Source of the DNA: a virus
Taxonomy: Duplodnaviria > Heunggongvirae > Uroviricota > Caudoviricetes
Virus record (IMG/VR): IMGVR_UViG_3300029305_002265
DNA length: 64,000 nucleotides
Direction: 5' to 3' (one strand)
A program made the position numbers and the translations under genes. The notes under the pieces were generated by a model. It was given only the letters and a program-made list of their open reading frames with translations. It searched no databases and was not told the DNA's origin. Below, piece after piece: positions 19,323-39,141 of the stretch. Position 1 is the first letter of the stretch. The number at the start of each line of letters is the position of its first letter.

Positions 19323-19667
19323 TCATCCATTGTTGCCATCTCCTTCCTCTAAGAACTTTTCTTTCTCATATAGAATGCCATGTTTAGGAGTACTCATAAT
19401 GATGTCCTGGGGAAGACGTCTCGGACCACGAGGGAACTCCTTGTAAGCTTCGTCCATTACGCTATCCCACTGAGGCTTGGTAAGTTCGCACATAACCTTG
19501 TCTCCATACACGGGACTACAATAAGGAAGGAATTGATGATCCGCATAATTAAAGTTATATCTGCGCTTGCGAATACGCTCAACCAATGCCTTCTTTCGGT
19601 CTTCGGTAAATGTAACTACTGGCAACCTGCCTGAAAAACAATCTGTCCATCCTACAACAGAACTCAT
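19323..19667 (-). CDS. Hypothetical protein (114 aa)
   Basis: ORF only. Confidence 0.3.
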   Translation of the reverse strand: MSSVVGWTDCFSGRLPVVTFTEDRKKALVERIRKRRYNFNYADHQFLPYCSPVYGDKVMCELTKPQWDSVMDEAYKEFPRGPRRLPQDIIMSTPKHGILYEKEKFLEEGDGNNG

Positions 19668-20431
19668 ATTTCATCTTCCTCCTGATCAAAATAATTTTTA
19701 ATTAATGTAAGTAGCGGCTCTCTTGTTAAATTTTCGCTCGCCCAAACAAGCCAACCTCTATCTGAAGCAGCAACCTCTGGAATTGTTTTCCCGTTGTGCT
19801 TTCCGAAATTAAGTTTGTATTCGTTGATATCGGGTAATTTCGGCTTATTCTCTTCTCCGTCGAATAAAATATGAATGTCACGCCGACTTGCAATATAGTC
19901 CGAAGTGTGAACAAGTTCTTGAACTAGAGTTTCAGGTGATGGTAAAACTACTTTACTTTTTTTGTTTGTAGTCCATTCTCCAGAATGCGAAGCTATGGCA
20001 TCTGCAATGATATCTCTTACATCCTGGCTTAAAATATCATTCAGTCGATCATCGCTTCTAACAAATTCAGAAGCCAAAACGGGATGAGGGTGAACTGAGA
20101 AACCAGTCTTATTTTCCAACCCATGTTTCAAGCAATCGTGTAACAATGCAGCACAAATCACACAATCCTTTTCGATATCATTTAACTTGCTTTTATACTG
20201 CTGCAAGTTGACGAGATAATTTGCCACTTTAGCAACTGCCTTTGTATGATATACAAGTCCACCAAATCCACACTCTAAGGCCGAATGAAACTGCCCCGAC
20301 GAAGAGGCTGGAACCTCAAAGAAATAATCTGGGACTAAAGTGACTGCCTTTTTGAAGAAACTCTTTACATCTTCTATCTCCATATAGGGGATCTCTTTTT
20401 CAAAGAGGGCAATCTTTTCTTCACTCGTCAT
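19664..20431 (-). CDS. HD-domain phosphohydrolase with a C-terminal short phage-type motif (FGKHNGKTIPEV…WLVW)
   Basis: HD metal-binding residues (H…HD…D) in …ALLHDCLKHG…; the C-terminal FGKHxGKT…WL motif is common in phage proteins. Confidence 0.55.
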   Translation of the reverse strand: MTSEEKIALFEKEIPYMEIEDVKSFFKKAVTLVPDYFFEVPASSSGQFHSALECGFGGLVYHTKAVAKVANYLVNLQQYKSKLNDIEKDCVICAALLHDCLKHGLENKTGFSVHPHPVLASEFVRSDDRLNDILSQDVRDIIADAIASHSGEWTTNKKSKVVLPSPETLVQELVHTSDYIASRRDIHILFDGEENKPKLPDINEYKLNFGKHNGKTIPEVAASDRGWLVWASENLTREPLLTLIKNYFDQEEDEI

Positions 20432-24731: not shown

Positions 24732-24832
24732 AAATTTAACGCTCCTTATATAATTTGGTCGAATATGTCCGATTCGAACGGCTCCCCGTGCTTCCAATGC
24801 ACGTATGCTACCATTACACCACATACTCGATA

Positions 24833-24908
24833 TGGCTGGCGATGTAGGATTTGAACCTACGAATAACGGAGTCAAAGTCCGCAGTGTTGACCGCTTCACC
24901 AATCGCCA
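24833..24908 (-). tRNA. tRNA-Gln (anticodon TTG), CCA encoded
   Basis: Hand-folded cloverleaf: acceptor TGGCGAT/ATCGCCA, anticodon loop CTTTGAC, T-arm GTAGG-TTCAAAT-CCTAC. Confidence 0.7.
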
Positions 24909-25058
24909 GTATAGATGGCGATTCTTAACTCTTTCGAGAGGCCAATCGCCTTAGCCTTGAGCCGTCTGTTCCCAGCAGATGACTCACTGAATTGTGAAGC
25001 GTATTGCTTCAATAAAAATGTGATTAAATCGTGCGAGGTTCCGTCTTAGAACTTCTGC

Positions 25059-25148
25059 TGGCGCAAAGGGAGGGATTCGAACCCTCGGACTCCGAAGAGT
25101 CGCCGCGTTAGCAGTGCGGTGCAATCGACCAGACTCTGCCACCTTTGC
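25059..25148 (-). tRNA. tRNA-Ser (anticodon GCT), long variable arm, CCA encoded
   Basis: Acceptor GCAAAGG/CCTTTGC, anticodon loop CTGCTAA, variable hairpin GACTC-TTCG-GAGTC, T-arm GAGGG-TTCGAAT-CCCTC. Confidence 0.7.
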
Positions 25149-25654
25149 ATATGAATACGGTTAACTTTCCTCAAGATGACGATCCAAGGAGATTTGAACT
25201 CAGTTCACCGTAAGCATCACACCACGCCAATGCTTAAGACCGCCATATGTAAGAAGAAAGTATAAGTGTCCTTAAGGAACCTTTTCTACACTGGTAGATA
25301 GGCAATTTCACCAAGCAGTATGCCTTAACACAGTACACTACACTCCCTCTGCTTGGGTTTCATTGGGCTGTTCATCTAACTCCATTTCACCACTGCTGCT
25401 ATCTCCTTGTTATACTCATTACAGCAAGAATTTCTTCTTCATTCGAGTTCCTTTTGTGTAACGCCAACACCAAATGCGTCTACCAATCGGAAGGCTTCGT
25501 GGCACCCAACTTAACTTCCTTGATTAGGCGCAAGGGAACGCCACACTTAAGCAGGCGGATATTCCTCCGCAGTAGAATTTCTCATGACCAAATCCTCCTT
25601 TGCTAAGTATCGTAAGCTTTTGAGCTTGTTTTTGTCCTTACGGACTGGAGCGAT

Positions 25655-25765
25655 AGGCTAGATTCGAACTAGCATGTCTACCAAGACTTAAACGGAATCG
25701 AACCGCACGGGCTATAACCCCACTTTACCATTATAGTTTACTATCGCGCATGCCCCACACTTAAC
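25655..25765 (-). pseudogene. tRNA-like element: acceptor-like pairing GCGATAG/CTATCGC + T-arm GCTAG-TTCGAAT-CTAGC + TCCA, but about 100 nt long with no canonical D/anticodon arms. Possible tRNA pseudogene, intron-containing tRNA or other tRNA-like RNA
   Basis: Read on the minus strand; the internal segment has a second TTCGATT T-loop-like motif. Confidence 0.25.
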
Positions 25766-26044
25766 GCTAACAGACTCCTACTGACCAGTGGGCTACGGCT
25801 ATGACATTACTTCATTCTGCTTCGAAGGGACATTTGTTATCCGCATTTCCTTACGGGCAAGACCTGCTTTCACCCATTTGCAATTGGGTTTCTTTTAATA
25901 ATCCTTCGGCTTAACCCCGCCTACCACGCGGGTGCTTTATTTCGAATTACGCATTCTTACTTGCGTACCATTAACCTACAACGCTATTCGACAGGGTTGT
26001 TATAATTTTTTACTAGCAGACCTTAACAACTTATCATACTGCCC

Positions 26045-26120
26045 TGGTGAGTCTGGAGAGATTCGAACTCTCGACCCCGTGATTAAAAGTCACGTGCTCT
26101 GCCAACTGAGCTACAGACTC
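26045..26120 (-). tRNA. tRNA-Lys (anticodon TTT), CCA encoded
   Basis: GAGTCTG acceptor, D-arm TAGCTCAGTTGGCAGAGC, anticodon arm CGTGA-CTTTTAA-TCACG, T-arm GAGAG-TTCGAAT-CTCTC. Confidence 0.85.
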
Positions 26121-26129
26121 ATATAAAGT

Positions 26130-26180
26130 GAGATTTCTAAAACCCTCCACAGTGGGAAACTCCATCTCGATGTTTTTTTA
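26130..26180. ncRNA. Conserved hairpin element 1 (GAGATTTCTAAAACC…GGAAACTCCATCTC + T-run), paralogue of 26392-26440
   Basis: Shares stem position, TCTAAAACC and GGAAACT loop blocks and a trailing T-run with element 2; sits between tRNA-Leu(TAG) and tRNA-Lys. Confidence 0.4.
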
Positions 26181-26209
26181 TTACAGGAGGTGATCGTATG
26201 ATGTACGAA

Positions 26210-26294
26210 TGGTGCAGATACTGGGATTCCAACCCAGACGCCTTGCAGCAATAGATCCTAAGTCTATCGTGTCTTGCAGTTCCACCATATCTGC
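26210..26294 (-). tRNA. tRNA-Leu (anticodon TAG), long variable arm, CCA encoded
   Basis: Acceptor GCAGATA/TATCTGC, anticodon arm ATAGA-CTTAGGA-TCTAT, T-arm CTGGG-TTGGAAT-CCCAG. Confidence 0.7.
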
Positions 26295-26298
26295 ATAT

Positions 26299-26383
26299 TG
26301 GTGCGAATGGTGGGACTTGAACCCACACGCTTTATAGCAATGGTGTTTGAGACCACATCGTCTGCCAATTCCGACACACTCGC
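26299..26383 (-). tRNA. tRNA-Leu (anticodon CAA), long variable arm, CCA encoded
   Basis: Acceptor GCGAGTG/CATTCGC, anticodon arm GTGGT-CTCAAAC-ACCAT, T-arm GTGGG-TTCAAGT-CCCAC. Confidence 0.7.
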
Positions 26384-26591: not shown

Positions 26592-27089
26592 TTATGACAA
26601 GAAATTTTTCGACTTATATTTATGTATGTTCTTGCCCTTATAATTGTCGGTTAAGGCATGACAATTAGGACATAATAATTGTAAATTTTCTATATTGTTA
26701 TTTTCTTTATTTCCATCTTTATGATGTACTTCAAGTGGTATAGGAACATTATTCCATAATGTATTTTTACAACACTCACAAATATGTTCTTTAAGTCCCT
26801 CGCGAAGAAGTTTCTTTCTTATTTTGTTGGTTTGAACATTTTTACTTTTAATATATTCATTAAATGGAACATATCTATCACTTTCATAAGTTTTTCCAGA
26901 TAACCAACCTTGTCCAGTGAAATGAGATATATCGAGATTTAATTCTTGAATCATTGATTGCAAAGTTATATAACTAGAACCGCACTTACTGTATCCTAAT
27001 TTTTGAGATAATGTTGACCAACTATAACTTTCTTTTACATATTGTTCAATCTCTTGTCTGGTGTAATTTCTCCATTTTGCTTTCTTCAT
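26592..27089 (-). mobile_element. HNH homing endonuclease (165 aa) inserted in the tRNA island
   Basis: C-terminal HNH motif EVHHKDGNKENNNIENLQLLCPNCH; N-terminal DNA-binding-like region; AT-rich relative to its flanks; homing endonucleases typically sit in phage tRNA clusters. Confidence 0.75.
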
Positions 27090-27489
27090 ATGATACCCTC
27101 TTCAATATAATTTAAAGAGTAATTTTTCAGGTATCTTTTATCGCATCTTTTATAGAAAAACTACTGCCTTTCGGCTGGTAGGGCGAGAGGGATTCGAACC
27201 CTCAAAACACGGATTTTTGGTGGAAGACCCAAGAATTGAACTCAGACCTCGTTACTAGATTATTGTGCTTCCGTTACACCAATCTCCCAAGTCCGCTGTC
27301 TCTGCCAGTTTGACTACCGCCCCGTTTTGTTTTGTTTGATTGAGCCATCGGACTTCCACCGATGGGATGTGTGGTGAGCTTCGTGTTTGCAACCACTTCT
27401 CACGGTCTTTTTAATCCATCCACTTGCGACCAACATTTTAATTAATTTACACACATTTTTCATATCTTGTACTTTTAAGAGATTTTCTT

Positions 27490-27688: not shown

Positions 27689-27753
27689 ATTATAGCACAA
27701 CTTTTTCGTTTTGTCAATACCTTTTCGTAATCGTTTACAATCTGTTTACAATT
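27689..27753 (-). promoter_or_regulatory. Sigma70-type promoter (TTGACA-N17-TGcTATAAT) with TTGTAAACAGATTGTAAAC repeats; likely drives the tRNA-island transcript
   Basis: rc of 27712-27717 is TTGACA and rc of 27689-27694 is TATAAT with an extended -10; repeats at 27733-27753. Confidence 0.5.
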
Positions 27754-28001: not shown

Positions 28002-28030
28002 ATTATATCATAATCATTCTGTTTTGTCAA
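28002..28030 (-). promoter_or_regulatory. Sigma70-type promoter TTGACA-N17-TATAAT for the HPr-like gene
   Basis: rc of 28025-28030 is TTGACA and rc of 28002-28007 is TATAAT. Confidence 0.45.
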
Positions 28031-28081: not shown

Positions 28082-28990
28082 CTAGTGGGCCGCCTTATCG
28101 GCTTCGTGAAGTTGCATTATATCATTATACAATTCTTCTCCCCAAAGCCTACGATACTTATTGTGCAACTTCTCATTATTATCCTTTTCCCAGAAGTAAG
28201 GTTGCATGTGCCAACGAATTAAAACTGCAACATACAGCAGATCTATCTTATCAGAAAAATCTTCGCGATAAAATAAACTATCATAGCTGCCTGTGTGCTC
28301 GTGGTTGTAATAATGAGCTTGTTCGGTTATCTCACCTTTTGTATTTTTGAATGTCTTGCAAAATGGTTTACCGCAATCGTGCAGCATTCCAGCGAATTTA
28401 AGTTCCTTCGACGTATTATTTAATTTAACACATACTGCTTCACAATGCTCGCCTAACGTTAAAGTATGATGTGTATTATGTTGATTAAAATGTTTATTCG
28501 CAAGATAAAAATTGTTAGGGAGTCTATAATTCGTATCATAATGCATAACTATTATATCATCCCATCCCTCATAGTCCCACGGCGGATCAAAATTCGTATA
28601 CATTCTTTTGATAACATACTCAGGCACTTTTCTGTCTCTTTTTGCACTACGCTCAAGACAGGTCTCGTATGGAGTCGCCATTAATACACAGACTTTTTTA
28701 CAGGGAATATTCTTTAATTCCTGTAAAAACGCTTTACGCTCCTTATAGTGGACACAACAAGCATCATATATACAACTTTTCCCACTCCTTAAATCATCCT
28801 TAACGCGCTGATGGAGTGTCTTGAAGACTAAGACGTTGTTTTCTTGATTATTAGTGTCTCCTGTAAGCTCCTCACGAATAGCGTCACTAGAATGAATATT
28901 GGCGTTGTAGTTCTTGGCAAGTCTTATGGCTTCTGTGGATTTGCCACTACAGGGTAAACCGCACATCATCCAAAAAGTCGGTCTATTCAT
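28082..28990 (-). CDS. Bifunctional P-loop kinase + HD phosphohydrolase (Pnkp-like polynucleotide kinase/phosphoesterase candidate)
   Basis: N-terminal Walker A MMCGLPCSGKST (T4 Pnk/AAA_33-like); C-terminal HD motifs (…MLHDCGKP…H…HEH…). Confidence 0.5.
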   Translation of the reverse strand: MNRPTFWMMCGLPCSGKSTEAIRLAKNYNANIHSSDAIREELTGDTNNQENNVLVFKTLHQRVKDDLRSGKSCIYDACCVHYKERKAFLQELKNIPCKKVCVLMATPYETCLERSAKRDRKVPEYVIKRMYTNFDPPWDYEGWDDIIVMHYDTNYRLPNNFYLANKHFNQHNTHHTLTLGEHCEAVCVKLNNTSKELKFAGMLHDCGKPFCKTFKNTKGEITEQAHYYNHEHTGSYDSLFYREDFSDKIDLLYVAVLIRWHMQPYFWEKDNNEKLHNKYRRLWGEELYNDIMQLHEADKAAH

Positions 28991-29784
28991 TTGTCTATTT
29001 CCTTTCTAAAACTATGCTTTAACACATCAAATAACACGCTATTCATAATCTCATCAACCTCAGAGTCGATAACCAATGGGTGGGTATCCATATATTCTTG
29101 CTTTGTAAGTTTAACAAGATATTCAATGTTATTTGCCATTTGCCTTGCTTCTTCCAATGAATGAATATACTCAGCCTTAACGTTGATTAAATACTGAGGG
29201 TTCGTAGGAATAAGACATTCTGCATAAGAAGTTCCAGCGATATACCTATTAAGAAACTCTTCACAACGAATAATGTGGTGCAATTGTTTATTGTCGTAAC
29301 CATACTTTTTGATCTTTTCAATAAGTGTGGGATACGGATGTTCCATCGCTTTATGCTTTTCGTACACCATTCCTGCAATGCAATTAACCGCCGCATAGTT
29401 ATTATAGTGCGCTATCTTTTCATTGCTATCAAACATAGGTTGATATAAATCTGCATATTCTGGATTAAGATACTTATATTTCGTGAATAGGATTTCTATG
29501 AAGTTGATATTTTGCTTACGAAAACAATCGTGCATTAATCTGATATCTTTAATATCTATATGTTCGTTGCTCGGCAATATTAATGTTGTGCTTGCAGGTT
29601 TACGATTAAGCACGAAGTCTTCAAATGCGGGAATGACTATCGCCTTAGTGTCGATATCGCTGCCCTCATAATCAAGATGGTAGTTTTGGGAGCCTTGAAG
29701 AAAAACTCCCAAAACCTTATAGCCCAAAGAGGCGGCATAATCAAAATCGGATTTCAGTCTATTGAAAATTTTATCATCTTTCAT
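28987..29784 (-). CDS. Pol-beta-superfamily nucleotidyltransferase (265 aa); function unknown, possibly an RNA 3-prime-end modifying/CCA-type or MNT-type NTase
   Basis: hG[GS]x9-13Dh[DE] NTase signature in LQGSQNYHLDYEGSDIDTKAIV. Confidence 0.4.
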   Translation of the reverse strand: MKDDKIFNRLKSDFDYAASLGYKVLGVFLQGSQNYHLDYEGSDIDTKAIVIPAFEDFVLNRKPASTTLILPSNEHIDIKDIRLMHDCFRKQNINFIEILFTKYKYLNPEYADLYQPMFDSNEKIAHYNNYAAVNCIAGMVYEKHKAMEHPYPTLIEKIKKYGYDNKQLHHIIRCEEFLNRYIAGTSYAECLIPTNPQYLINVKAEYIHSLEEARQMANNIEYLVKLTKQEYMDTHPLVIDSEVDEIMNSVLFDVLKHSFRKEIDK

Positions 29785-29794
29785 TTAAATCTCC

Positions 29795-31012
29795 TTAATT
29801 TCCAATCTCAATCAAATACTTAATAGTCATCTGGTCTTCCTTATACACTACAATCTCATCATTTCGAAGCATACCTCTATCGGCGTGTGCATGTAGGCAG
29901 TTTGCTCCCTGCTTAAACTGTTGTAACTTATTATAATCAAGGTTATAATACTTGCTGTCAAAATTGTACACATCATAAGGCGTTCCATAAGCCACATCAA
30001 AGATTGCCATATAAGCAGTGTTGTTACCGCCGTGAGCCCAATAAGAACCAGAGAGCGAGGTATAACCAATACTCTTTGCACACTTGGGGGCGTAATACAC
30101 TCCGTACCCAAACATCTTTCCTGTAATTACGGCATTAGTAGGTCTAAGTACTAAGCCTGTCTTAATAATAGACCAGAAATTCTCACTACGACTGCCATGG
30201 AACAGAAGTCTAGTGTCCTTGATGTCATTCTCCTTAACAAACTTATCAAAACGCTCCTGAGTCTTCAGATTGGTAACTCTCCAAGCCTTTTTAAACTTAT
30301 CAGCGGATTCTTTCATCAAAGTCTTAATTAGGGCAATATCATCTTTTGTAGTTTCTTCCATAACAAGACCAAGCTCTTCGAGAATGGTCTGCTGTTTCTT
30401 TTCGGTTGTGGTAACAGACTCAATCTCTGGCTTCACATAAATCTGTCCACGCATTACATCAAGAAGATCTTGCTCCTTGGTGATAATCTTTGAAAAATCT
30501 TCTGTCTTATTTGCCAGACAATAACGTACATCACTCATTCTTCTAGGAATAACTGTAAACAAGTTAAGCAGATTGGCATTAAACGCATCAACGGTTATGC
30601 TATTATTGGCGAGCTCATCAATAATCTTCTGTGCTGCATCCACCATATCCTGAGTAACAGCAGATGCTTTTACAGTATAGTTCTTGTTAATAGTCTCACG
30701 GGCAAGACTCTGAAGCTTATCCACAATTGCTTTTATGGCTGCGTTCTCAATGTCCTTGTATGGGCTTTCAGGATTGGTAGAGGAAACTTCCTCCACCAAG
30801 TCCTTCTTAAGATCAGTTACATCCTGGTAACCCTTTTTGAGTTTTGATTTGATTTGTGAATCCCATTTAGACATAGGATAATATGCTGTTGTTTTAGTTG
30901 CATCTACTCTGCCGTATTCAACACGGAACTGATTGCCTTCTGGAAAAAGATTATAGTACTTATTATTATTTGCCGTAGTTACCATAATCAAATAAGTAGG
31001 TCTTACTTCCAT
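29795..31012 (-). CDS. PARP-like ADP-ribosyltransferase: N-terminal WGR-like domain, helical linker, C-terminal PARP catalytic domain with the H-Y-E triad
   Basis: LLFHGSRSENFWSIIKTGL (PARP1 LLWHGSRTTNFAGILSQGL), GYGVYYA (GKGIYFA), RNDEIVVY (YNEYIVY); N-terminal …FRVEYGRVD…KLKKGYQ WGR pattern. Confidence 0.7.
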   Translation of the reverse strand: MEVRPTYLIMVTTANNNKYYNLFPEGNQFRVEYGRVDATKTTAYYPMSKWDSQIKSKLKKGYQDVTDLKKDLVEEVSSTNPESPYKDIENAAIKAIVDKLQSLARETINKNYTVKASAVTQDMVDAAQKIIDELANNSITVDAFNANLLNLFTVIPRRMSDVRYCLANKTEDFSKIITKEQDLLDVMRGQIYVKPEIESVTTTEKKQQTILEELGLVMEETTKDDIALIKTLMKESADKFKKAWRVTNLKTQERFDKFVKENDIKDTRLLFHGSRSENFWSIIKTGLVLRPTNAVITGKMFGYGVYYAPKCAKSIGYTSLSGSYWAHGGNNTAYMAIFDVAYGTPYDVYNFDSKYYNLDYNKLQQFKQGANCLHAHADRGMLRNDEIVVYKEDQMTIKYLIEIGN

Positions 31013-31024
31013 AGCACCCTCCTA

Positions 31025-31450
31025 TCAAATCTCACAAAACAGAATTTCAACATCCGTATCTTCAAAGACTTCACAAATAATATCGTAAACCTTGTCCCAA
31101 TCGAGACGGTCGAGTCCCGATGCAATTTTCGGCATTGCAAGCTTAGTAGTAGCATTCGTTTCCATTATGTCTCTCATAGTCTCAAGCGCTTCTTTAACCG
31201 CCTCGTATCTTGGCTTATGATAACACTTAGGCTTAGTTACAAGGTTAAATACATTATCAATAAGAAGCGCATCTCCGCCTTTGTAAGAGTACATATCATA
31301 CTCTCTGAAGAGCTTAAATCTCATATTGTAAACTTCATCAAAAGTCTTTGCTATACCTGCACCAAGTGCAAAATCTGCACTAATGCAATGAGCAAGATAA
31401 TAACCCTGAGGTACCGTAAATAAATCTCTCTGTTCAATGGTAATATTCAT
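31025..31450 (-). CDS. Macrodomain protein (ADP-ribose binding/hydrolase family)
   Basis: N-terminal RDLFTVP…AHCISADFALGAGIAKTF and C-terminal MPKIASGLDRLDW match the macro-domain core pattern (GDLF…N.x…GxGIA…; P.IGtG…). Confidence 0.55.
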   Translation of the reverse strand: MNITIEQRDLFTVPQGYYLAHCISADFALGAGIAKTFDEVYNMRFKLFREYDMYSYKGGDALLIDNVFNLVTKPKCYHKPRYEAVKEALETMRDIMETNATTKLAMPKIASGLDRLDWDKVYDIICEVFEDTDVEILFCEI

Positions 31451-31468
31451 AATACTTCTCCTTCGTTA

Positions 31469-32524
31469 TTACTTTCCTTCATCGAAAATATCGGACGGAA
31501 GAATATACCGACCATCACTGCCTACCACAAGCGGAAGTTCTCCATTCCAACCTTCTGCCATAATCTTTTCAATAAGGGCATCGGTAATAGACTCTGCAAT
31601 CTGCTTGTTCGCCTCTGCCTCTGCGGCAGCCTGAATTTTAAGCGCCTCGGCCTTTGCCTTTGCGATCTCAATTTCTGCCTGAGCCTCCTTAAGCTTTGCC
31701 TGTGCCTTTGCTTCTGCGGCAATAACTTCTGCCTTTGCTTCAGCATCTGCTTTTGCAAGGTTGGCCTCATTCTTGTTCTCTTGGATAATCAAATCCTGCT
31801 CAGATGCAAACTTAGCATCAATTGCCTCCTGGATATCGGGATTCTCAAAAGAAAATCCTTCCTTAATGCCAAGAACAGTAATGGTAATACCATATTCCTT
31901 GAAATATTCAACTACGGCAGTCTTGACCTTTTCTACAATTTCTGCCTTATGAGTATGAAGCTCAGTGCTCTTATACTGGCTAGTTGCGATATTAAACTGA
32001 TCCTCAACCATCTTCTTGATATCAGTATCAATAATGGTTTCAAGAGGAGTATTGTTATAACGGTAAAGGAACTTAGCAGCATCCTTTTCCTCAATCATAG
32101 CCGTGCAGTTCATACCGACATAAATTCCAATGGCATCGGATGTTTCACCAAAAATAGCCTTATTGCTACTGGTTGCAGCAGAATCGCCAGATTCCCAAGA
32201 ACGAGATACGGGCTTGCGCTCAACAACAATTACAGTTGCAGAAGGACGCCAGTTACCCATCCAATGACGACGACCAGTCTGGACCCAGCGATGCGGGATC
32301 TGAATCTCTTTGGTTGCAACCTTGGTTTCGAGAAGCAGAGCCTCAGACTCAAAAGTGCCCTGATTGGTGGTGTCGCCTATAAGAGGAATGAGGAACGCAG
32401 TCTGCGAGGGTTCGATAGTCATAAATTCGGGCTTGTCGTAAGGTTTGCGGCAACTAGTGAAGCAGCAAAGAATGAGAGTAAGAAGTGTTGCGAGAATAAA
32501 AGTTCTAAAAATAGTCTTTTTCAT
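31469..32524 (-). CDS. SPFH/band-7 (prohibitin/HflK-like) lipoprotein with a C-terminal A/K/E-rich coiled coil
   Basis: Lipobox LILCCFTSC; SPFH-like core followed by (AEAKA)n low-complexity. Confidence 0.55.
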   Translation of the reverse strand: MKKTIFRTFILATLLTLILCCFTSCRKPYDKPEFMTIEPSQTAFLIPLIGDTTNQGTFESEALLLETKVATKEIQIPHRWVQTGRRHWMGNWRPSATVIVVERKPVSRSWESGDSAATSSNKAIFGETSDAIGIYVGMNCTAMIEEKDAAKFLYRYNNTPLETIIDTDIKKMVEDQFNIATSQYKSTELHTHKAEIVEKVKTAVVEYFKEYGITITVLGIKEGFSFENPDIQEAIDAKFASEQDLIIQENKNEANLAKADAEAKAEVIAAEAKAQAKLKEAQAEIEIAKAKAEALKIQAAAEAEANKQIAESITDALIEKIMAEGWNGELPLVVGSDGRYILPSDIFDEGK

Positions 32525-32808
32525 TATATATTAAGTTCCTTTTCTAATTTATTCATATAAATAGCGGAGTAAATGTTTCTTCCGCAGATAATACAAGTGA
32601 GAAGACGAATGATAGTAAATATCATAGGGACATAGTTCCAGAGCCTCCAAGTGGCATAGCTCATATCATCGTTTTCAAGCTGACCTAGAGCCATGTCATT
32701 GGTAAATGTGGGCATAAATGCGTCAGAGATAATTGTCAATGCTATAAAAATTACAATTACCACAATGAGATTTATAATAATTTTCTTAACCATTATTTTC
32801 CTCCACAA
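32524..32808 (-). CDS. Small membrane protein (94 aa, three TM helices)
   Basis: Hydrophobic ORF coupled to neighbouring genes. Confidence 0.35.
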   Translation of the reverse strand: MWRKIMVKKIIINLIVVIVIFIALTIISDAFMPTFTNDMALGQLENDDMSYATWRLWNYVPMIFTIIRLLTCIICGRNIYSAIYMNKLEKELNI

Positions 32809-33146
32809 AAAGGACAGTTGCTTGAAGAGAAGAGGATATAAGTGCCCTCAGCGCAGAAAATATTATCATACTCTGCGGTTTTTACCTCAATGCCTGAACC
32901 TTCGTTTTCATACCACTTTTCAATGGTTGCGCAATGACCTTCTACTCCGTTGAAGAAGTGGATATGCCTAAAATCGTAGCTTCCCCAACCTATGCTCCTA
33001 TTGTTTGCGCTCACTTCAGTGGGGCATAGAGTGATGAACGCGGAGACCATCATAGCTGATACAAGCAATGCGCAAATAACAATAACTACTTTATTCATTA
33101 TTTGATTCCTCCTGGCTCTCTTCCATATCAGGAGCCTCTGCTTCAA
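32793..33146 (-). CDS. Small secreted/membrane Cys-containing protein (117 aa)
   Basis: N-terminal hydrophobic segment; C-terminal CPFCGG. Confidence 0.3.
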   Translation of the reverse strand: MKQRLLIWKRARRNQIMNKVVIVICALLVSAMMVSAFITLCPTEVSANNRSIGWGSYDFRHIHFFNGVEGHCATIEKWYENEGSGIEVKTAEYDNIFCAEGTYILFSSSNCPFCGGK

Positions 33147-34494
33147 CCTTCACAATGCCCTCAAGAGCCTTGAAGAACCAATTCTTATGCTTATATGCAC
33201 AGAACTTAGGACGGTTGATAATACGAACCACTACACCCTCACGAACATGCGTCTTACCAATGGGATCGGGTCCATCATAGAACTCTTCGGCAGCTTTTAT
33301 AACCATATCACCAACCGTGCCATCACCAATTAGATAATCGTGGTCATATCCATCTGGAGCAACTAGATGCAGTCTATCGCTGCTTATTGTTGCCGTTCCA
33401 AATACAGGAACGCACTTAACACCCATCTGCTCACAACGATAACGCATAAAGTCAGGAGTGTATTCTACGGTAAAGCCATCCTCATTGGTCATCGTCATAC
33501 GATATACATAGATATCAGACTGAGGACCAACCCACACGACATCTTCATAGTGACCTTCGTCGGTGCCTTCGGGATCACATCCGTAAGAGAATACAGTAGT
33601 CTGTCCATACTGCTTAACAAAATCCTTATCATTAAGCTTCTTATTGTCGCCACTTGCCATAATGGGAGCCCCAGTATGAGTGAATCCTACGACTTCGTAG
33701 AAAATCTCCTCGCCCTTATTCAGCTTACCCTCAAAGAACTTTGAGTGTGCTTCACGGAACTCATTAGAACCATAATATCCACCTTCAAAATTCTCAAGTA
33801 CGGTACGACGGGTACCAGATACATATCCCCAATCGTAGATAGGCTTACCTTCACGACGGAGAACCTTATCAATAAGAGTTCTCTTATACTTCTTGAACAC
33901 GGGAAGATAACCAGTTCTCTGACTCGTTCCGTGCATCTTGAGCGTAATTTCAATCTCATCACCAGGCTTAAACGCTGCGAGGTTGTACGCAAGCTGCTCA
34001 GTGTCTGCGTGTTCTGCAAAAAGGGGCGCCACAGGAACCTTCTTCTTGCGAGTCTTATTACCCTCGGAATAATGTCCTCTTCTATTTTGCTTTCGAGGGA
34101 TGTACTTACAACAAATCTCGTGACCATTGAAGTTGTCAATTCTATCACCCTCACGAAGAGCAGTAATGTCTCCAAAGGATTCGAGCGCCTTTAGAGGAAG
34201 GAAGAGACCATCCGACTTCTCTCCACGAAGTTTGATTGCGGTTACATTTCTCTTGTCTGGGTCCATATAACCGCCGATGTTGTTTCCTGCATCATCCTTC
34301 TTGCGAAGCAAATTATTTGCCTCAGCGAACTCGACTGAGAGCTGACCATCCGAAGGAAAATACACACCGAGCTGATTGTCTTCATACTCCATCGATACGA
34401 TTACTGCGTTTCCAAAACACTCACCAATCTGAAGTCTATCGGCATTAGGATGCTTATGTAGATTCTTAATTCTTGTAATATAAGCGTTATACAT
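33091..34494 (-). CDS. ATP-dependent RNA ligase (Rnl-type nucleotidyltransferase) fused to an N-terminal tRNA-binding (Myf/EMAP-like) domain
   Basis: N-terminal IKNLHKHPNADRLQIGECFGNAVIVS resembles the tRNA_bind motif (HPNADKL…V.VG); ligase motifs I KMHGTS, III EIFYEVVGF, IV REGVVVR, V AYKHK. Confidence 0.55.
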   Translation of the reverse strand: MYNAYITRIKNLHKHPNADRLQIGECFGNAVIVSMEYEDNQLGVYFPSDGQLSVEFAEANNLLRKKDDAGNNIGGYMDPDKRNVTAIKLRGEKSDGLFLPLKALESFGDITALREGDRIDNFNGHEICCKYIPRKQNRRGHYSEGNKTRKKKVPVAPLFAEHADTEQLAYNLAAFKPGDEIEITLKMHGTSQRTGYLPVFKKYKRTLIDKVLRREGKPIYDWGYVSGTRRTVLENFEGGYYGSNEFREAHSKFFEGKLNKGEEIFYEVVGFTHTGAPIMASGDNKKLNDKDFVKQYGQTTVFSYGCDPEGTDEGHYEDVVWVGPQSDIYVYRMTMTNEDGFTVEYTPDFMRYRCEQMGVKCVPVFGTATISSDRLHLVAPDGYDHDYLIGDGTVGDMVIKAAEEFYDGPDPIGKTHVREGVVVRIINRPKFCAYKHKNWFFKALEGIVKVEAEAPDMEESQEESNNE

Positions 34495-35119
34495 TCTTCT
34501 TCATCTCCTCTGCTCTTACAATGGCCTCTGCCATCTCCTGGATTCGCTTCTCTCTTTCCATAGCACGCTTCTTCGCCCAATGTGCCTTCACCTTCTGATA
34601 ATTCTTTTCGGCCTTTGCCTTCTTTCGAGCTTCCTCTTCTGCTCTCTTCTTCTTGTCTGCTTCTGCCTTGTCGTAAAACTTAGTCGCATAAGAAAGCAAC
34701 TTGCTAAGAACGGCTGTGCCTTCCTTACCAATCATTTCCTTGACAATACAACGAAGAAGTCCGTCCTCAAAGAAGTAGGGATCGTTACCCTGGACGGTCG
34801 CCGTCTGAGTGTCACCGTTTACAAAAGTCATCTTGATGGTGTTTTCGTTAAACACGCCGATAGACTTGATTGCAGGAATGAGATCCTGGCTGCCATCAAA
34901 GAAACCGTCCTTGTAGTATCGTGCAACAATTCGACCAAACTCAACTTCAAGCGACGAACGCTGGTCAGGTCTGACCTCAGGCTTCTTAGTTGCCTCTTCT
35001 ATTGCAGAGGTTATATTGGAAAGTGAGTTGGAAGTTACAACCTCATTGACGAAATTCCAACAAGGCTCGCCGTCGTAAGTGTAAGTTACATTGCCATTAT
35101 GGCCCGCTTTAATTGTCAT
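34487..35119 (-). CDS. Hypothetical protein with a C-terminal K/E/A-rich coiled coil; start set at the second ATG after AAGGAG
   Basis: Promoter-proximal; the first ATG belongs to the conserved leader motif. Confidence 0.35.
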   Translation of the reverse strand: MTIKAGHNGNVTYTYDGEPCWNFVNEVVTSNSLSNITSAIEEATKKPEVRPDQRSSLEVEFGRIVARYYKDGFFDGSQDLIPAIKSIGVFNENTIKMTFVNGDTQTATVQGNDPYFFEDGLLRCIVKEMIGKEGTAVLSKLLSYATKFYDKAEADKKKRAEEEARKKAKAEKNYQKVKAHWAKKRAMEREKRIQEMAEAIVRAEEMKKNV

Positions 35120-35154
35120 TTTCTTTTTCTCCTTAATCATTTCGTTGTGTGCAT

Positions 35155-35219
35155 ATTATAGCACAGTTTCTTTTATTTGTCAATAGACTTTGTGTATCGT
35201 TTACATTTTATTTACAATC
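35155..35219 (-). promoter_or_regulatory. Sigma70-type promoter TTGACA-N17-TGcTATAAT with TTGTAAATAAAATGTAAAC repeats
   Basis: rc of 35178-35183 is TTGACA and rc of 35155-35160 is TATAAT; repeats at 35198-35219. Confidence 0.5.
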
Positions 35220-35969
35220 AGGCTTAAATGTCGGTATTGGATTTAATTTGAATAAATTCTTCTGGTGAAGGTGATCAATTTTTGCCTTTGCTACTTCATC
35301 TTCGCATACACCAGTGCGAATATATTTATTCAATACTTCATAGGTAAACCCAAAGTTATCCTCGTCAGTTTTGCCACAGAGACCGTCTGAAGGTGTCTTG
35401 TGAGTCAACTCATATGGAAGTCCACAGGCATCGCCAATAGCAACCACTTCATCAGAAGTAAAGTTTAGTATGGGCATTAAATCTGCTACATTATCGCCCC
35501 ACCTGGTGGAATAACCTATATATGCTTCTGAGGCATTATCTGTTCCAACAACACGTCCATTTACACTTTGAGATATGGCATAAAGCGTTGCCATACGAAT
35601 ACGAGGAGGAAGATTTATGGTTGTCTGCTTGCTAATTTCAATATCCGTCGGAAACTGATTGTCAATACCAACAACAGCATCCCAAATATTCATAGTATAA
35701 CTTTTAATCCCAAGACATTGAATAAGTTTATTAGAATCATCGATATCAGGCTGTACACCACAGGGCATCTTTACACCGATTACTCTGTCCTTGCCAAGAG
35801 CTTCTACGCAAAGCGCAGCTACAACGCTTGAGTCTTTACCACCACTAATACCAATTACAGCATTACAACCTTTTCCATTCTGTTCAAACCACCCTCTAAT
35901 CCAAGCGACAATTCTATCTTTAATCTCTATCGCATTAAAATTATTCATGTGTAATCTCCCCATTTTCAA
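35208..35969 (-). CDS. nadE: NH3-dependent NAD+ synthetase
   Basis: PP-loop ATP pyrophosphatase motif GISGGKDSS; 253 aa, NadE-like. Confidence 0.8.
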   Translation of the reverse strand: MKMGRLHMNNFNAIEIKDRIVAWIRGWFEQNGKGCNAVIGISGGKDSSVVAALCVEALGKDRVIGVKMPCGVQPDIDDSNKLIQCLGIKSYTMNIWDAVVGIDNQFPTDIEISKQTTINLPPRIRMATLYAISQSVNGRVVGTDNASEAYIGYSTRWGDNVADLMPILNFTSDEVVAIGDACGLPYELTHKTPSDGLCGKTDEDNFGFTYEVLNKYIRTGVCEDEVAKAKIDHLHQKNLFKLNPIPTFKPDCK

Positions 35970-36348
35970 TTTTAGTAATTAATTTATCCAACATTCTATA
36001 TACAGAAGGCAAGCCACCTCTATCATCAATATAAGCATTTGCATATGTTTTGCGCCCACCAAAAGATATAGAACTGTCACAGTTAATACCTTTATATTTA
36101 ATGCCTACATTTTCCATATACTCCTTGATTATTGGATGCTGCGCTTCGCCATTTCCTGTTAAAATAACAACCTCTGAATAAGGCTCCCAACGTTTGAGGA
36201 GCGTAATAACATCACTATAAGAACGACCAAGTTTATGAAAATCATAGATGGTATCATCGAAGTCTACGCAAAAGATGAGTTTGCCATACTTCTTGAATTC
36301 ATCTTCAAGTCTTTGATAGCAATTTTCTTCAGAAAGATAAAAATCCAT
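35941..36348 (-). CDS. Small HAD-superfamily phosphatase (135 aa)
   Basis: DxDxT motif CVDFDDTIY; size similar to stand-alone polynucleotide/nucleotide phosphatase domains. Confidence 0.45.
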   Translation of the reverse strand: MDFYLSEENCYQRLEDEFKKYGKLIFCVDFDDTIYDFHKLGRSYSDVITLLKRWEPYSEVVILTGNGEAQHPIIKEYMENVGIKYKGINCDSSISFGGRKTYANAYIDDRGGLPSVYRMLDKLITKIENGEITHE

Positions 36349-37826
36349 TAAAAATTACCTCCGTGCAATCTATCTCTAATTTCTGCAAGAGTCTGCTCTT
36401 TAGTCATTACTCCATCTTTGAATATGGTGACTAAATGATTCTGATAATCATATTTTGCTTCATCCCATGTAGCACCATCTATATAAACAAGTGCTTCTTT
36501 CTCTCGACTCCATCTAACGGAACAACATCCCTTCTGCGACTTCTTAAAACCACCATCTTTAGGATTCTTGAATATCGGATATGGCTTACCGTCAATCTCA
36601 CAATAAGTCGCCTTGATGCAAGAACTAAAAGTATCTCTTGTGAAAGGCTTCAGAATACCATCTTCCTCAACACACTGGAACGAGAACGAACCAACACCAA
36701 GAGCAACATTGGAACAAGCAAATCCATTTTCCATAAGAATTTGATAAATCTGTTCGCAACGCTGGATAGTAATACTGTCGCCATAAATTGCTTTCACATG
36801 AGGATTAAGCACTTTATATCCCTTACTATTAATAGTACCACCAAAGATATCCCAAAGTTTAAAAACGGTTTTGGTTACAACCTCAACACAGTCACCAGAG
36901 TCACCACGCATAAGCATGCAACCATTGTGTGCAAGGATTTCTTCCTTAAGTCTAGGAAGAATATTGTCAATTACATTCCAATAATCATAAGAGTCAAGTA
37001 CAGCAGAAAAACTTGTGTTAGGGTAAATTTCTGTAAGCAGTCTTCTAAGAAGAGTTTCCTCATCGCCATCAACGGCATAGTTACTGCACATTACAGAATG
37101 CTCAGTAGAAGGCGAACCAAAAGCCACAGGTTCTTTTGTACAATCACAGTTATAATTTGCCTCAAGGTAAGGAATTGTAGGAACAGTTGCCGTATTCAAG
37201 AAGGATAGACACCAACCAGCTCCCGCCTTTTCAGCAGATTGTAGACATTCTTCACCTCTAAAGTCGAATGCACCAAGTGCTCTTGCTCTCGGAATATTGT
37301 CATCACAAGTGAGGTCATAATACTTGTTGACAATTTCTCTATATGTATAACCAACAGTAGCAGCAAGCATTGGATGCCATATCTCAGCAGAAATAAGGGA
37401 TTCTAAACTCTGAGGCAACCACGCAAAATCAGGGTGAGTGTTTGTAATACCAAACATCGGCACATGCATAGGTACAAGCGTTCCTTCGGGAAGTGCTACA
37501 ATTTCAATAGGAAGATAGCCAAGCTTGTGAAGATGTTCAATTTTATCAATTTTATATGTGTCCTTGCCAAGAGTTGCATCCATAACTCTCTTATATTCAG
37601 AGATTACTTCATCAAAAGACTTGTTAAAGAATTCGTTGTTAAAATAATCAATAAGATAGGTCTTAATGAATCCCTGAAGTCCAAACATTACCACCTTGTC
37701 CCATCTCTTTACTCTGCTCATGCGAGGAGTAAAGTAAGATACGGACTTAGTAATGCCCTTGGGGAGCATTTCGGCATGGACAGCCTTATAGAAATCAATT
37801 AACAACATAGGATTTGTTCTTCTCAT
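36348..37826 (-). CDS. Nicotinamide phosphoribosyltransferase family protein (NAMPT/NadV or Namat-like)
   Basis: N-terminus NPMLLIDFYKAVHAEMLPKGITKSVSYFTPR parallels NAMPT NILLATDSYKVTHYKQYPP…VYSYFECR; 492 aa. Confidence 0.8.
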   Translation of the reverse strand: MRRTNPMLLIDFYKAVHAEMLPKGITKSVSYFTPRMSRVKRWDKVVMFGLQGFIKTYLIDYFNNEFFNKSFDEVISEYKRVMDATLGKDTYKIDKIEHLHKLGYLPIEIVALPEGTLVPMHVPMFGITNTHPDFAWLPQSLESLISAEIWHPMLAATVGYTYREIVNKYYDLTCDDNIPRARALGAFDFRGEECLQSAEKAGAGWCLSFLNTATVPTIPYLEANYNCDCTKEPVAFGSPSTEHSVMCSNYAVDGDEETLLRRLLTEIYPNTSFSAVLDSYDYWNVIDNILPRLKEEILAHNGCMLMRGDSGDCVEVVTKTVFKLWDIFGGTINSKGYKVLNPHVKAIYGDSITIQRCEQIYQILMENGFACSNVALGVGSFSFQCVEEDGILKPFTRDTFSSCIKATYCEIDGKPYPIFKNPKDGGFKKSQKGCCSVRWSREKEALVYIDGATWDEAKYDYQNHLVTIFKDGVMTKEQTLAEIRDRLHGGNF

Positions 37827-38629
37827 AATTCAAATACCTCAATCTTTTCGTGTTCCTTTGTAAAAATACTGTTAGTCGTATAAACTCTTTCAATGAAACC
37901 GCTTGTAAGAAGTTCGCCTTCGAGGATAGTGTTTTCACAATGAGTTATATAAAGATATATGTTCTTAGCACCAGCCTCTTTGAGTGCTTTAGCAGAATGA
38001 TAGAAAGTGCCACCACGAGAACAAATGTCGTCAATAATTAAAACATCTCTATCTTTTACAACATCTTTGTTCATTAGTTCAAGACCAAGAATCTTTCCTG
38101 TTTCCCAATCACGCTTTTTAATTCCGAAAGCATAAGCACCCTTTACATAATCTGTGCCACGCTTCATTGCGCCTTCATCTGGATAAAAAGCAACCAAGCC
38201 ATTTTTATTTGGGATAGCTTCAATTGTCCTAGTAATCATTTCCAGTGGATGTTTAACCTTAACATTGTTAATAAGCGCTGCACAAACATTGCTGTGCGGG
38301 TCAAGAATTCTCACTTCAGTAAAATTGAGACCGTTAATCACATCTGCGAAATGCTTCAGAGTAAAAAATTCATTAGAGCTTTTTACTCTGTCCATACGAG
38401 CGTGTGGACAATAAGGCATTTCAAGAATCATATCTTGTCTATCAAAATGTTTGCGAATGCAAATTATAGTAAACAGTTCGGCGTCGTTTTCATAGTGCCA
38501 AGTGAGTATCTTTGGAGATTTGCCAAACCAATCCAAACTAAAAATAGGCTCTGTATAATCGGTTTCAATTCTTAAAGAGTTGTCTGGAAAACGAGCCTGT
38601 GTTATAAGCTTATCATTTATTTTAATCAT
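37823..38629 (-). CDS. Ribose-phosphate pyrophosphokinase family protein (Prs or Adps-like); start moved to MIKINDK after GGAGAATAATT
   Basis: PRPP-binding loop VLIIDDICSRGGT; 4-nt overlap with the NAMPT-like gene. Confidence 0.7.
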   Translation of the reverse strand: MIKINDKLITQARFPDNSLRIETDYTEPIFSLDWFGKSPKILTWHYENDAELFTIICIRKHFDRQDMILEMPYCPHARMDRVKSSNEFFTLKHFADVINGLNFTEVRILDPHSNVCAALINNVKVKHPLEMITRTIEAIPNKNGLVAFYPDEGAMKRGTDYVKGAYAFGIKKRDWETGKILGLELMNKDVVKDRDVLIIDDICSRGGTFYHSAKALKEAGAKNIYLYITHCENTILEGELLTSGFIERVYTTNSIFTKEHEKIEVFEL

Positions 38630-38631
38630 AA

Positions 38632-39141
38632 TTATTCTCCAATCACATTTATCTGGCACATTTTCATTGTGGTAAGTGCCGCCTGATGAGTCTCAGGAGT
38701 TACACCAGCACAACAACTTGCATCTACTGTAATGCTGATTTCGGGGAACTGAGCCTTGAGAATAAGTGCATTAGACACTACGCAAATGTCGGTGCAAAGA
38801 CCTACGAGTTCAATTTCTTCAAAATCAAACAAGTCGTTCCAATATGTGCAACCGAAGGTGTATTTATCGACGTGAACACATTCTGGAGAATTAATTTCCT
38901 TTGTTATAAGCCAGCCCTCGGTGCCACGAATACAGTGTTCGACAGGCAAGTGCTTGCCCTCGTTGGTGGTAAGATAATATGCTGAATGAGTATCTCTTGT
39001 AAAGATAATCTCATCTCCACGAGCCTTATACTCTTCAATCTTCCTCTTTACATTTGGCACAATAGCCTGCGCCTCCTTAGTTCCGAGGGCGCCGTCAATA
39101 AAATCATTCTGCATGTCAATTACAATAAGCGTTCTTTTCAT
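38632..39141 (-). CDS. Isochorismatase-family cysteine hydrolase, nicotinamidase (PncA)-like
   Basis: VIDMQNDF (Asp), GLCTDICV (catalytic Cys) arrangement as in PncA. Confidence 0.65.
   Translation of the reverse strand: MKRTLIVIDMQNDFIDGALGTKEAQAIVPNVKRKIEEYKARGDEIIFTRDTHSAYYLTTNEGKHLPVEHCIRGTEGWLITKEINSPECVHVDKYTFGCTYWNDLFDFEEIELVGLCTDICVVSNALILKAQFPEISITVDASCCAGVTPETHQAALTTMKMCQINVIGE

Follow-up and report, generated by a model that had tools for sequence, protein, structure and literature searches.

The window analysed here, a 64,000-nucleotide (nt) stretch of the tailed-phage record IMGVR_UViG_3300029305_002265, carries on its minus strand, between positions 28082 and 34494, the genes of a polynucleotide kinase fused to an HD phosphoesterase (Pnk-HD), a pol-beta nucleotidyltransferase (NTase), probably of the RlaP family, and an ATP-dependent RNA ligase of the Rnl5 type. 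Together, the three genes probably constitute a phage cassette for the repair of RNA breaks by healing, fill-in and sealing, with the reaction steps assigned by homology to characterised enzymes. The reading is built on the identities of the domains, on the conservation of their catalytic residues, on the predicted fold of the ligase and on the linkage of the genes; from these we infer the activities, the order of the steps and the substrate. The last of these is the main uncertainty, because nicks inside duplexes are what the characterised Rnl5 enzymes prefer. There is about an even chance that the cassette repairs tRNAs, or other structured RNAs of translation, that have been cut by anticodon nucleases of the host or by ribotoxins of abortive infection. 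A sequence-only reading of the same DNA had already proposed such a heal-and-seal set, and all of the open reading frames (ORFs) and sequence features that it listed are present on the minus strand, including the 4-nt overlap between the kinase-HD ORF (28082-28990) and the NTase ORF (28987-29784). The interval 28082-34494 also contains five genes that it did not mention, namely those for a PARP-like protein, a macro-domain protein, an SPFH lipoprotein and two small ORFs.

In the proposed pathway, the HD domain of Pnk-HD would hydrolyse a cyclic or 3'-phosphate to give a 3'-OH, and the P-loop domain of the same protein would phosphorylate the 5'-OH to a 5'-phosphate. The RlaP-type NTase, which needs a 3'-OH, could then add one or two nucleotides if the nuclease had removed any, and the Rnl5-type ligase would self-adenylylate on K186 and seal the 3'-OH/5'-PO4 break, its OB domain positioning the ATP gamma-phosphate by analogy with NgrRnl. 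The core of this pathway would consist of the three genes only; in the window, the trio is split by a macro-PARP module, the SPFH lipoprotein gene and the two small ORFs.

From both sequence profiles and the predicted fold, it is clear that the largest of the three proteins belongs among the RNA ligases. The predicted Rnl5-type enzyme (33091-34494, minus strand, 467 aa) comprises an N-terminal OB domain (residues 1-132, nt 34099-34494), a disordered linker (residues 137-151) and a nucleotidyltransferase domain (residues ~156-467, nt 33094-34029), and contains the segments HPNADRL, KMHGTS and AYKHK. It matches phrog_968 'RNA ligase' over its full length with an E value of 1.4e-61, and also PF21189 (PHA02142 OB fold, 9e-5) and PF09414 (RNA_ligase, 4.7e-3). 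The match to TIGR02306 (RNA_lig_DRB0094, 4.3e-15) covers residues 6-197 only, and since its 55.4 bits lie under the trusted cutoff of 151.15, the protein is better regarded as a member of a divergent phage subfamily than as a DraRnl equivalog. When the ligase was aligned with its homologues from phage LC76P1 (44% identical by BLASTP), phage vB_BcoS-136 (49%, tblastn) and three actinophages (27-30% in the alignment), the catalytic motifs were found to be invariant down to 27% identity: K186/H188/G189 (motif I), G227/R229 (Ia), E267/G270 (III), Y329-R332 (IIIa), E419/G420/R424 (IV) and K435/K437 (V). The N-domain residues D49 and K130 are invariant in this alignment as well. Among closer relatives (P0039, P0099 and P0062, 79-86% identical), variable insertions of 10-25 residues are seen in the surface loops at ~306-325 and 205-225; these two loops evolve fast, and the catalytic motifs are fixed.

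A phmmer search with the single ligase sequence against PDB sequences gave no match, and a family profile was required. The top solved match of that profile was NgrRnl (5cot, 5e-5; OB module aligned to NgrRnl residues 8-119), with the N-domain, motif I and motif IV aligned in identical order. AlphaFold2 run on a shallow alignment, in which all members were at least 79% identical, gave an unusable model with a predicted local distance difference test score (pLDDT) of 43; the final model, for which diverse homologues were gathered with a profile of distant homologues, reached a pLDDT of 85.9 and a predicted template-modelling score (pTM) of 0.83. In a Foldseek search of this model against the PDB, the 13 best matches were all NgrRnl (E 5e-16 to 1e-14, full-length alignments, TM 0.65-0.71 when normalised to the target), followed by T4 Rnl2 at 2e-6 and then by REL1 and Rnl3, with DNA ligases at 2e-3 or worse. 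This ranking excludes the DNA ligase or capping enzyme that the sequence-only reading had named as the alternative to an RNA ligase. We have also ruled out that the protein is the DNA ligase of the phage, for which DNA ligases are poor fold matches; a separate full-length NAD-dependent enzyme (LigA-type, with BRCT) is encoded at 20987-22954 on the minus strand, so that the Rnl5-type protein is not needed for DNA sealing.

Residues 1-132 of the model are predicted confidently as an all-beta domain. Compared alone by Foldseek, this domain matches PheRS beta, the Trbp-like tRNA-binding protein 3bu2 and the C-terminal tRNA-binding domain of MetRS, the last with a root-mean-square deviation of 2.3 Å over 108 columns. 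The N-terminal segment is thus an OB fold of the tRNA-binding type, as had been proposed from the letters. The further suggestion that its fusion to a ligase is unusual and possibly undescribed does not stand, however, since an OB domain followed by an NTase domain is the very layout that defines Rnl5 (DraRnl, NgrRnl). Homology between the Rnl5 N-terminal OB fold and the B2 domain of PheRS was put forward in 2007 (PMC1807946), the class has been defined by OB plus NTase with no C-terminal appendage, and phage homologues were noted earlier (PMC1807946, PMC4408790, PMC7261155). In NgrRnl, the role demonstrated for the OB domain is not tRNA binding but contact with the ATP gamma-phosphate and promotion of lysine adenylylation (PMC1807946, PMC4408790, PMC7261155). 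The activity that characterises the family is an ATP- and Mn-dependent sealing of 3'-OH(RNA)/5'-PO4 nicks by way of a lysyl-AMP intermediate.

The window ligase shares with DraRnl and NgrRnl the OB-then-NTase order without a C-terminal appendage. Beyond motif V (K437), the model shows two short helices (439-451 and 457-466), one of which belongs to an acidic tail, and the protein ends 48 residues past motif IV. Its N-domain resembles the PheRS-B2, Trbp and MetRS-C tRNA-binding OB folds, as has been described for that of DraRnl (PMC1807946). In contrast, it is only ~15% identical to NgrRnl and is longer than the two characterised enzymes (467 versus ~340 aa), with clade-specific insertions at ~190-227 and ~364-388 within the nucleotidyltransferase domain, the variable loop at ~306-325 and the acidic tail. 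It also sits apart from them in the phage subfamily PHA02142/phrog_968, known here from sequence and predicted fold.

The second member of the set, probably a divergent pol-beta nucleotidyltransferase of the RlaP family (28987-29784, minus strand, 265 aa), is predicted to add 1-2 nt to an RNA 3'-OH at a break. It carries the pol-beta signature GSQNY...SDIDTK and matches the phrog_388 nucleotidyltransferase profile at 9.9e-10. Its own score against PF10127 (RlaP) is 15.8 bits (E 0.012) with a gathering cutoff of 23, and the LC76P1 homologue (34% identical, tblastn, 5e-28) scores 28.3 bits, over the cutoff. All four aligned members, the window protein included, match PF10127 at E<=1 (best 1.1e-9), and G31, S32 and the aspartates D43, D45 and D80 are invariant in the alignment. 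Searched by sequence against solved structures, the RlaP profile gave no match, and none to the PfRlaP crystal structure of PMC12776372. According to that work, a December 2025 preprint, RlaP enzymes add one or two nucleoside monophosphates at RNA 3'-OH ends, prefer the 5' half of a cleaved-tRNA mimic, are inactive on DNA and on 3'-phosphorylated ends, and restore aminoacylation to a tRNA missing an anticodon-loop nucleotide (PMC12776372). The family match and this activity together support the earlier idea that the NTase could restore 3' ends, and its likely site of action is at the break, not at the CCA end.

Compared with PfRlaP, PaRlaP and T4 NrdC.11, the window NTase has the same GS...DxD...D signature and likewise neighbours an RNA ligase and end-healing genes, and its homologues rise above the Pfam threshold. 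It differs in its own sub-threshold score (15.8 versus 23 bits), in belonging to a Firmicute-phage branch and in its partners, which are a 5'-phosphate ligase and Pnk-HD instead of RtcB/RtcA. The closest GenBank homologue by identity (39%) is found in Phage Phass-1 (locus L009, 6908-7732), a human gut phage of the code-15 clade that reassigns a stop codon; a tRNA island with 15 or more genes follows it directly downstream, and neither a ligase nor a Pnk-HD gene was seen in the 14 kb examined at that locus.

The third member, Pnk-HD (28082-28990, minus strand, 302 aa), is predicted to be a bifunctional end-healing enzyme. It combines an N-terminal P-loop domain, the predicted 5'-OH polynucleotide kinase (residues 1-150, nt 28541-28990; AAA_33, 1.1e-22), with a C-terminal HD domain, the predicted phosphoesterase (residues ~165-302, nt 28085-28498; PF01966, 2.7e-5). 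For the kinase, the best solved relative is the Pnkp of Clostridium thermocellum (CthPnkp, 4gp7, 1.8e-11), with which the P-loop and the SSD36xxR39 motif align; the TIGR04075 bacter_Pnkp profile matches at 4.7e-15, and the tRNA(Sec) kinase PSTK is also among the next-closest relatives. The sequence-only description of this domain as a Pnkp-like kinase is thereby borne out. For the HD domain, a profile of this part only matched the Aquifex class II tRNA nucleotidyltransferase (3wfp-3wfs, 1.1e-9) and then Cas3 HD domains (~6e-3), with no dNTPase at E<=1, and tblastn with the HD domain alone also retrieved a phage 'tRNA nucleotidyltransferase'. An HD domain of the dNTPase kind (dGTPase/SAMHD1-type), which had been named beforehand as a finding that would speak against end healing, is ruled out by this search. 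Since the domain is closest to the HD domains of tRNA nucleotidyltransferases, 3'-end healing is the natural prediction, and it is a sensible candidate for the removal of 2',3'-cyclic phosphates.

An exhaustive search of 1.84 billion cluster representatives recovered 927 Pnk-HD clusters at 50% identity (E<=1e-30), meaning that the family is large and not a rarity, and nearly all of the top 150 representatives are ~300 aa long and collinear over their full length. Within these 150, the kinase residues G11, G16, K17, R39, D76 and R85 and the HD residues H175, H182, H204, D205, K208, H230, H261 and D298 are conserved at >=99%, and D36 and R118 only slightly less (97% and 98%). A kinase-HD variant had been suggested as part of an unusual, possibly undescribed architecture, but the arrangement is that of a large family annotated 'polynucleotide kinase' in Bacillus phages. 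The two domains match phrog_6931 in swapped order (profile positions 183-340 correspond to the kinase, residues 2-150, and positions 32-139 to the C-terminal HD), which makes Pnk-HD a reverse-order relative of a phage family with HD first and kinase second. Our literature search for 'Pnk-HD' or 'kinase-HD' returned no relevant paper, and no biochemical study of the reverse-order family was found.

The HD-Pnk of Runella slithyformis (Munir and Shuman 2017), as described in PMC6097658, has an N-terminal HD phosphoesterase followed by a P-loop kinase and is encoded beside a ligase. Enzymes of this type are characterised by 5'-OH kinase activity and by a phosphoesterase activity that depends on transition metals and removes 2',3'-cyclic, 3'- and 2'-phosphates; in the Pnk-HD family, the P-loop, Asp36/Arg39 and H...HD...H...H...D residues are conserved. 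Measured against that description, the window protein likewise holds an HD phosphoesterase and a P-loop 5'-OH polynucleotide kinase in one polypeptide, with an ATP-dependent ligase gene in the same block, but it is kinase-first and HD-last, and the window locus has none of the Tpt1 or MTase-HIT partner genes described for Runella. A second HD-domain protein of the window (19664-20431, minus strand; PF01966, 2.5e-8) has an ExoX-like C-terminal motif and a layout unrelated to that of Pnk-HD.

If the three proteins work together, their genes should travel together, and gene neighbourhoods in relatives agree with this. Lysinibacillus phage LC76P1 has the contiguous order NAMPT - orf - ligase - RlaP - Pnk-HD, and the ligase, RlaP and Pnk-HD genes also occur together in the metagenomic loci L016 and L018. 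A ligase gene is followed immediately by Pnk-HD in Bacillus phage vB_BcoS-136 and at a chromosomal locus of B. mojavensis with phage-type neighbours, and in phage PK-3 a Pnk-HD of the same family stands behind an unrelated, Rnl1-type ligase. Adjacency of ligase and Pnk-HD genes was recorded in vB_BcoS-136, LC76P1, PK-3, L014 and L016, and the actinophage members of the ligase family adjoin genes annotated 'polynucleotide kinase'. We have also surveyed 80 IMG/VR loci with a Pnk-HD gene (46-60% identity), counting genes within 10 kb on the same strand and dereplicating at 80% identity to 23 lineages. A ligase was present in at least 63 of the 80 loci and RlaP in at least 59 (14 and 17 of the 23 lineages, respectively), these counts being lower bounds because several loci end at contig ends. 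RlaP is mostly immediately adjacent to Pnk-HD, and ligase-RlaP-PnkHD is the commonest order. Other metagenomic relatives show PnkHD...DNA ligase-ligase-RlaP, ligase-orf-RlaP-PnkHD, or ligase-NTase-PnkHD beside Thg1, NADAR, PTH2 and NAMPT genes; one has ligase-orf-RlaP-PnkHD-Thg1-calcineurin phosphoesterase-RecJ-macro-(GIY-YIG)-PARP. Thg1, a calcineurin-like phosphoesterase, PTH2 or NADAR are thus extra genes of the cassette in some relatives. With homologues adjacent and co-oriented in many diverged phages, the three proteins make a plausible heal-and-seal set, as the sequence-only reading had it.

The same neighbourhoods bear on whether the three genes are independent of one another and merely share an early-gene region. 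In that case, the substrates of the kinase-HD protein could, for example, be nucleotides or signalling molecules, and those of the NTase could be small molecules or proteins. Both AAA_33 and HD stand for broad superfamilies, the surroundings are rich in genes of nucleotide and NAD metabolism, and the phages compared are related, so that a kept gene order is not independent evidence. The linkage nevertheless survives at least four gene orders and two unrelated ligase families, the Asp-x-x-Arg motif aligned to the CthPnkp kinase is conserved, and the nearest relatives of the kinase are Pnkp and PSTK and not the nucleotide kinases. We therefore regard independence of the three genes as very unlikely.

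A second alternative keeps the cassette together and changes its substrate, the enzymes serving to maintain nucleic acid during phage replication by acting on RNA-3'-OH nicks in RNA:DNA hybrids or primer junctions, or on damaged phage DNA ends. The Runella HD-Pnk heals DNA as well as RNA ends, and DraRnl is linked to radiation resistance. The characterised Rnl5 enzymes are template-directed nick sealers (PMC4408790). The block itself lies among replication and nucleotide-metabolism genes (PolIII alpha, DHH/RecJ-like, LigA, NrdD and ThyX), and an ATP-dependent DNA ligase adjoins the cassette in L013 and L014. Several observations point the other way: RlaP is active on RNA but inactive on DNA (PMC12776372), the HD domain is most closely related to those of tRNA nucleotidyltransferases, the enzymes that relatives add to the cassette include the tRNA enzymes Thg1 and PTH2, and the dedicated DNA ligase is encoded separately. 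In PK-3, moreover, Pnk-HD is paired with an Rnl1-type ligase, and it is a member of that family, T4 Rnl1, that repairs tRNA cleaved by PrrC in the T4 system. On balance, a role in nucleic-acid maintenance appears rather unlikely.

RNA break repair thus remains the reading that we prefer, and a number of points weigh against it. The characterised Rnl5 enzymes are known as sealers of nicks in duplexes and not as enzymes that join broken tRNA anticodon loops (PMC4408790, PMC7261155). The window ligase is far under the trusted cutoff of TIGR02306 (55 versus 151 bits) and has ~90 additional residues in its NTase domain, and the window NTase itself is under the PF10127 threshold. Because the compared phages are kin, part of the shared gene order may be inherited rather than selected. 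The promoters of the block, described below, are consensus matches only, and the proximity of the cassette to tRNA genes is not conserved.

This last point concerns the six tRNA genes at 24756-26383, next to which the cassette lies in the window. Placement beside a tRNA island with damaged or pseudo tRNAs had been taken as fitting a tRNA-centred arms race, an argument that now has little support: only 24 of the 80 loci have tRNA genes no more than 10 kb away from Pnk-HD, and upon dereplication this holds for 3 of the 23 lineages. A general rule that the cassette is sited beside tRNA islands is rejected on these counts. Between the island and the block, at 27221-27288 (minus strand), there is a tRNA-like element that scores 26.9 bits against an Rfam gathering score of 29 and is not called by ARAGORN. 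Acceptor, D and T arms are present and the CCA end is encoded, and the anticodon-arm region is shortened to 14 unpaired nt. The element folds no more stably than shuffled sequence does (z = 0.64), and may be either the remnant of a tRNA gene or a decoy that resembles a tRNA.

Within the block, the genes that separate the ligase from the NTase include a macro-PARP pair, encoding a macro domain of the TARG1/OARD1 type (31025-31450, minus strand, 141 aa; PDB 4j5r OARD1, 6.2e-24; NF048014 DarG, 7.1e-9) and a PARP1/2-like ADP-ribosyltransferase (29795-31012, minus strand, 405 aa; PF00644, 1.1e-23; PARP1 catalytic domain, 1.9e-10) with a weakly WGR-like N-terminus (E 0.06). These could be working parts of the repair pathway, providing a reversible NAD-dependent ADP-ribosylation of broken or phosphorylated nucleic-acid ends or of the attacking nuclease. 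The pair lies within the same tightly packed block as the repair genes, occurs near the cassette in four arrangements (the window, L015, the L018 group and L075) and has NAD+ salvage genes next to its block; the Runella genes for the ligase and HD-Pnk share a cluster with that for the NAD-dependent 2'-phosphotransferase Tpt1 (PMC6097658). If the proposal were true, the locus would be an NAD-coupled RNA repair operon, loosely parallel to that Runella ligase/HD-Pnk/Tpt1 cluster. The PARP domain is, however, PARP1/2-like and not Tpt1/KptA-like, and a PARP gene is close by in just 6 of the 80 Pnk-HD loci. We have also made the reverse test with 80 IMG/VR loci carrying a PARP homologue (L097-L176; 24 lineages once dereplicated). 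A macro homologue is present in 78 of them, directly upstream of PARP in the dereplicated representatives, whereas within 10 kb of PARP a Pnk-HD gene is found in 23 and a ligase in 18 (5 and 3 of the 24 lineages, respectively). PARP thus rarely accompanies repair genes, and the macro-PARP pair behaves as a separate, mobile two-gene module. As obligate repair parts, PARP and macro are largely rejected by this test, and we hold even a working role in repair to be highly improbable. In the lineage of the window, macro-PARP is an independent module inserted in or near the cassette.

The genes discussed so far lie in a block of nine on the minus strand (35140-28082), with intergenic gaps of at most 18 nt or overlaps. 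This tight packing makes co-transcription probable, and the nine genes are probably one transcription unit. The block is bracketed by two 12/12 matches to the sigma-70 consensus with an extended -10 TG: one (TTGACA-17-TATAAT + TG, 35155-35183, minus strand) lies just upstream of the first gene, and the other (28002-28030, minus strand) just past the Pnk-HD stop, at the likely 3' boundary of the unit. A third sigma-70-type 12/12 match with an extended -10 TG is found at 27689-27717 (minus strand). Three perfect matches within 8 kb suggest that sigma-A of the host strongly recognises these sites, which would mark where early or middle transcription units are bounded.

The first gene of the block (34487-35140, minus strand) encodes 217 aa, or 210 aa from the second Met, overlaps the start of the ligase gene by 8 nt and has no Pfam or PHROG match; L002/L003 and the L097 group have it in the corresponding place ahead of the ligase gene. 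Between ligase and NTase lie two small ORFs of ~101-117 aa and 89-94 aa (32524-33146, minus strand), predicted membrane proteins that match no Pfam or PHROG family and are called as genes in L002. They are followed by an SPFH/Band-7-like lipoprotein (31469-32524, minus strand, 351 aa; phrog_200 'lipoprotein', 1.9e-25; Band_7, 9.1e-4) with the lipobox-like N-terminal sequence LILCCFTSC. In L015, a Band_7 gene is again seen ahead of macro-PARP-ligase. The small ORFs and the lipoprotein are passengers and not part of the core; as a guess, they might serve superinfection exclusion.

Directly upstream of the block is an NAD+ supply cluster (35208-39141, minus strand) with genes for a NadE-like NAD synthase, a 135-aa ORF, NAMPT, a ribose-phosphate pyrophosphokinase (Prs) and an isochorismatase/nicotinamidase-like protein. 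Both LigA and PARP consume NAD+, which may explain the presence of this salvage cluster. NAMPT and Prs genes also stand beside ligase/Pnk-HD genes in LC76P1, vB_BcoS-136, L011 and L076. Between the tRNA island and the block there is an HNH homing-type endonuclease gene (26592-27089, minus strand), and in L018 a GIY-YIG/NUMOD3 endonuclease gene has been inserted between macro and PARP. Mobile endonucleases such as these may drive rearrangements of the repair region.

The parent phage, with a genome of ~172 kb, is so far known from metagenomes only, and a megablast search of the region against GenBank phages gave no match, hence there is no near-identical GenBank phage. The exact ligase protein is present on 25 contigs, and near-identical ligase sequences number in the thousands in metagenomes, indicating a very abundant uncultured lineage. 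Elsewhere in the window (9036-16751 and 58792-60812), genes for NrdD (anaerobic ribonucleotide reductase) and for a pair of SleB-type cell-wall hydrolases point to a host among the anaerobic Firmicutes that form spores, and a large serine recombinase and a tyrosine integrase in the same two regions suggest a temperate or mosaic genome.

How does the cassette compare with known repair systems? It follows the logic of T4 Pnkp plus Rnl1 and of bacterial Pnkp/Hen1, in which a 5' kinase, a 3' phosphoesterase and an ATP-dependent ligase reverse ribotoxin cuts, and its kinase domain is homologous to that of CthPnkp. The phosphoesterase differs, being an HD domain where T4-type Pnkp has a DxDxT (HAD) 3'-phosphatase and CthPnkp a calcineurin-type domain. 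The ligase is of the Rnl5 type and not Rnl1 or Rnl4, a fill-in NTase (RlaP) is added, and no Hen1 was noticed in the window, although no search aimed at Hen1 was made. Comparative genomics has already described both the parts and their association, including the occurrence in large phages of HD-type phosphatases, of RlaP and of divergent ligases from actinophages (PMC7824862), and annotated genomes of cultured Bacillus phages contain the same sets of genes. Each enzyme belongs to an already described family, and the cassette is a genuine but ordinary heal-and-seal set with two modest peculiarities: the domains of Pnk-HD stand in reverse order, and macro-PARP has been inserted in this lineage.

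Taken together, the locus adds a very abundant uncultured lineage to phage RNA repair, a recognised form of counter-defence against host nucleases that cut tRNA. Because phage Rnl5 ligases are so steadily linked to Pnk-HD and RlaP, and at times to Thg1, their possible role in the repair of tRNA or other translation RNAs can be tested directly in culturable relatives, and the Tsamsa-like Bacillus phages and LC76P1 are suited to the question of the Rnl5 substrate. The locus is therefore useful for choosing experimental targets, chiefly for finding out what Rnl5 ligases repair in vivo.

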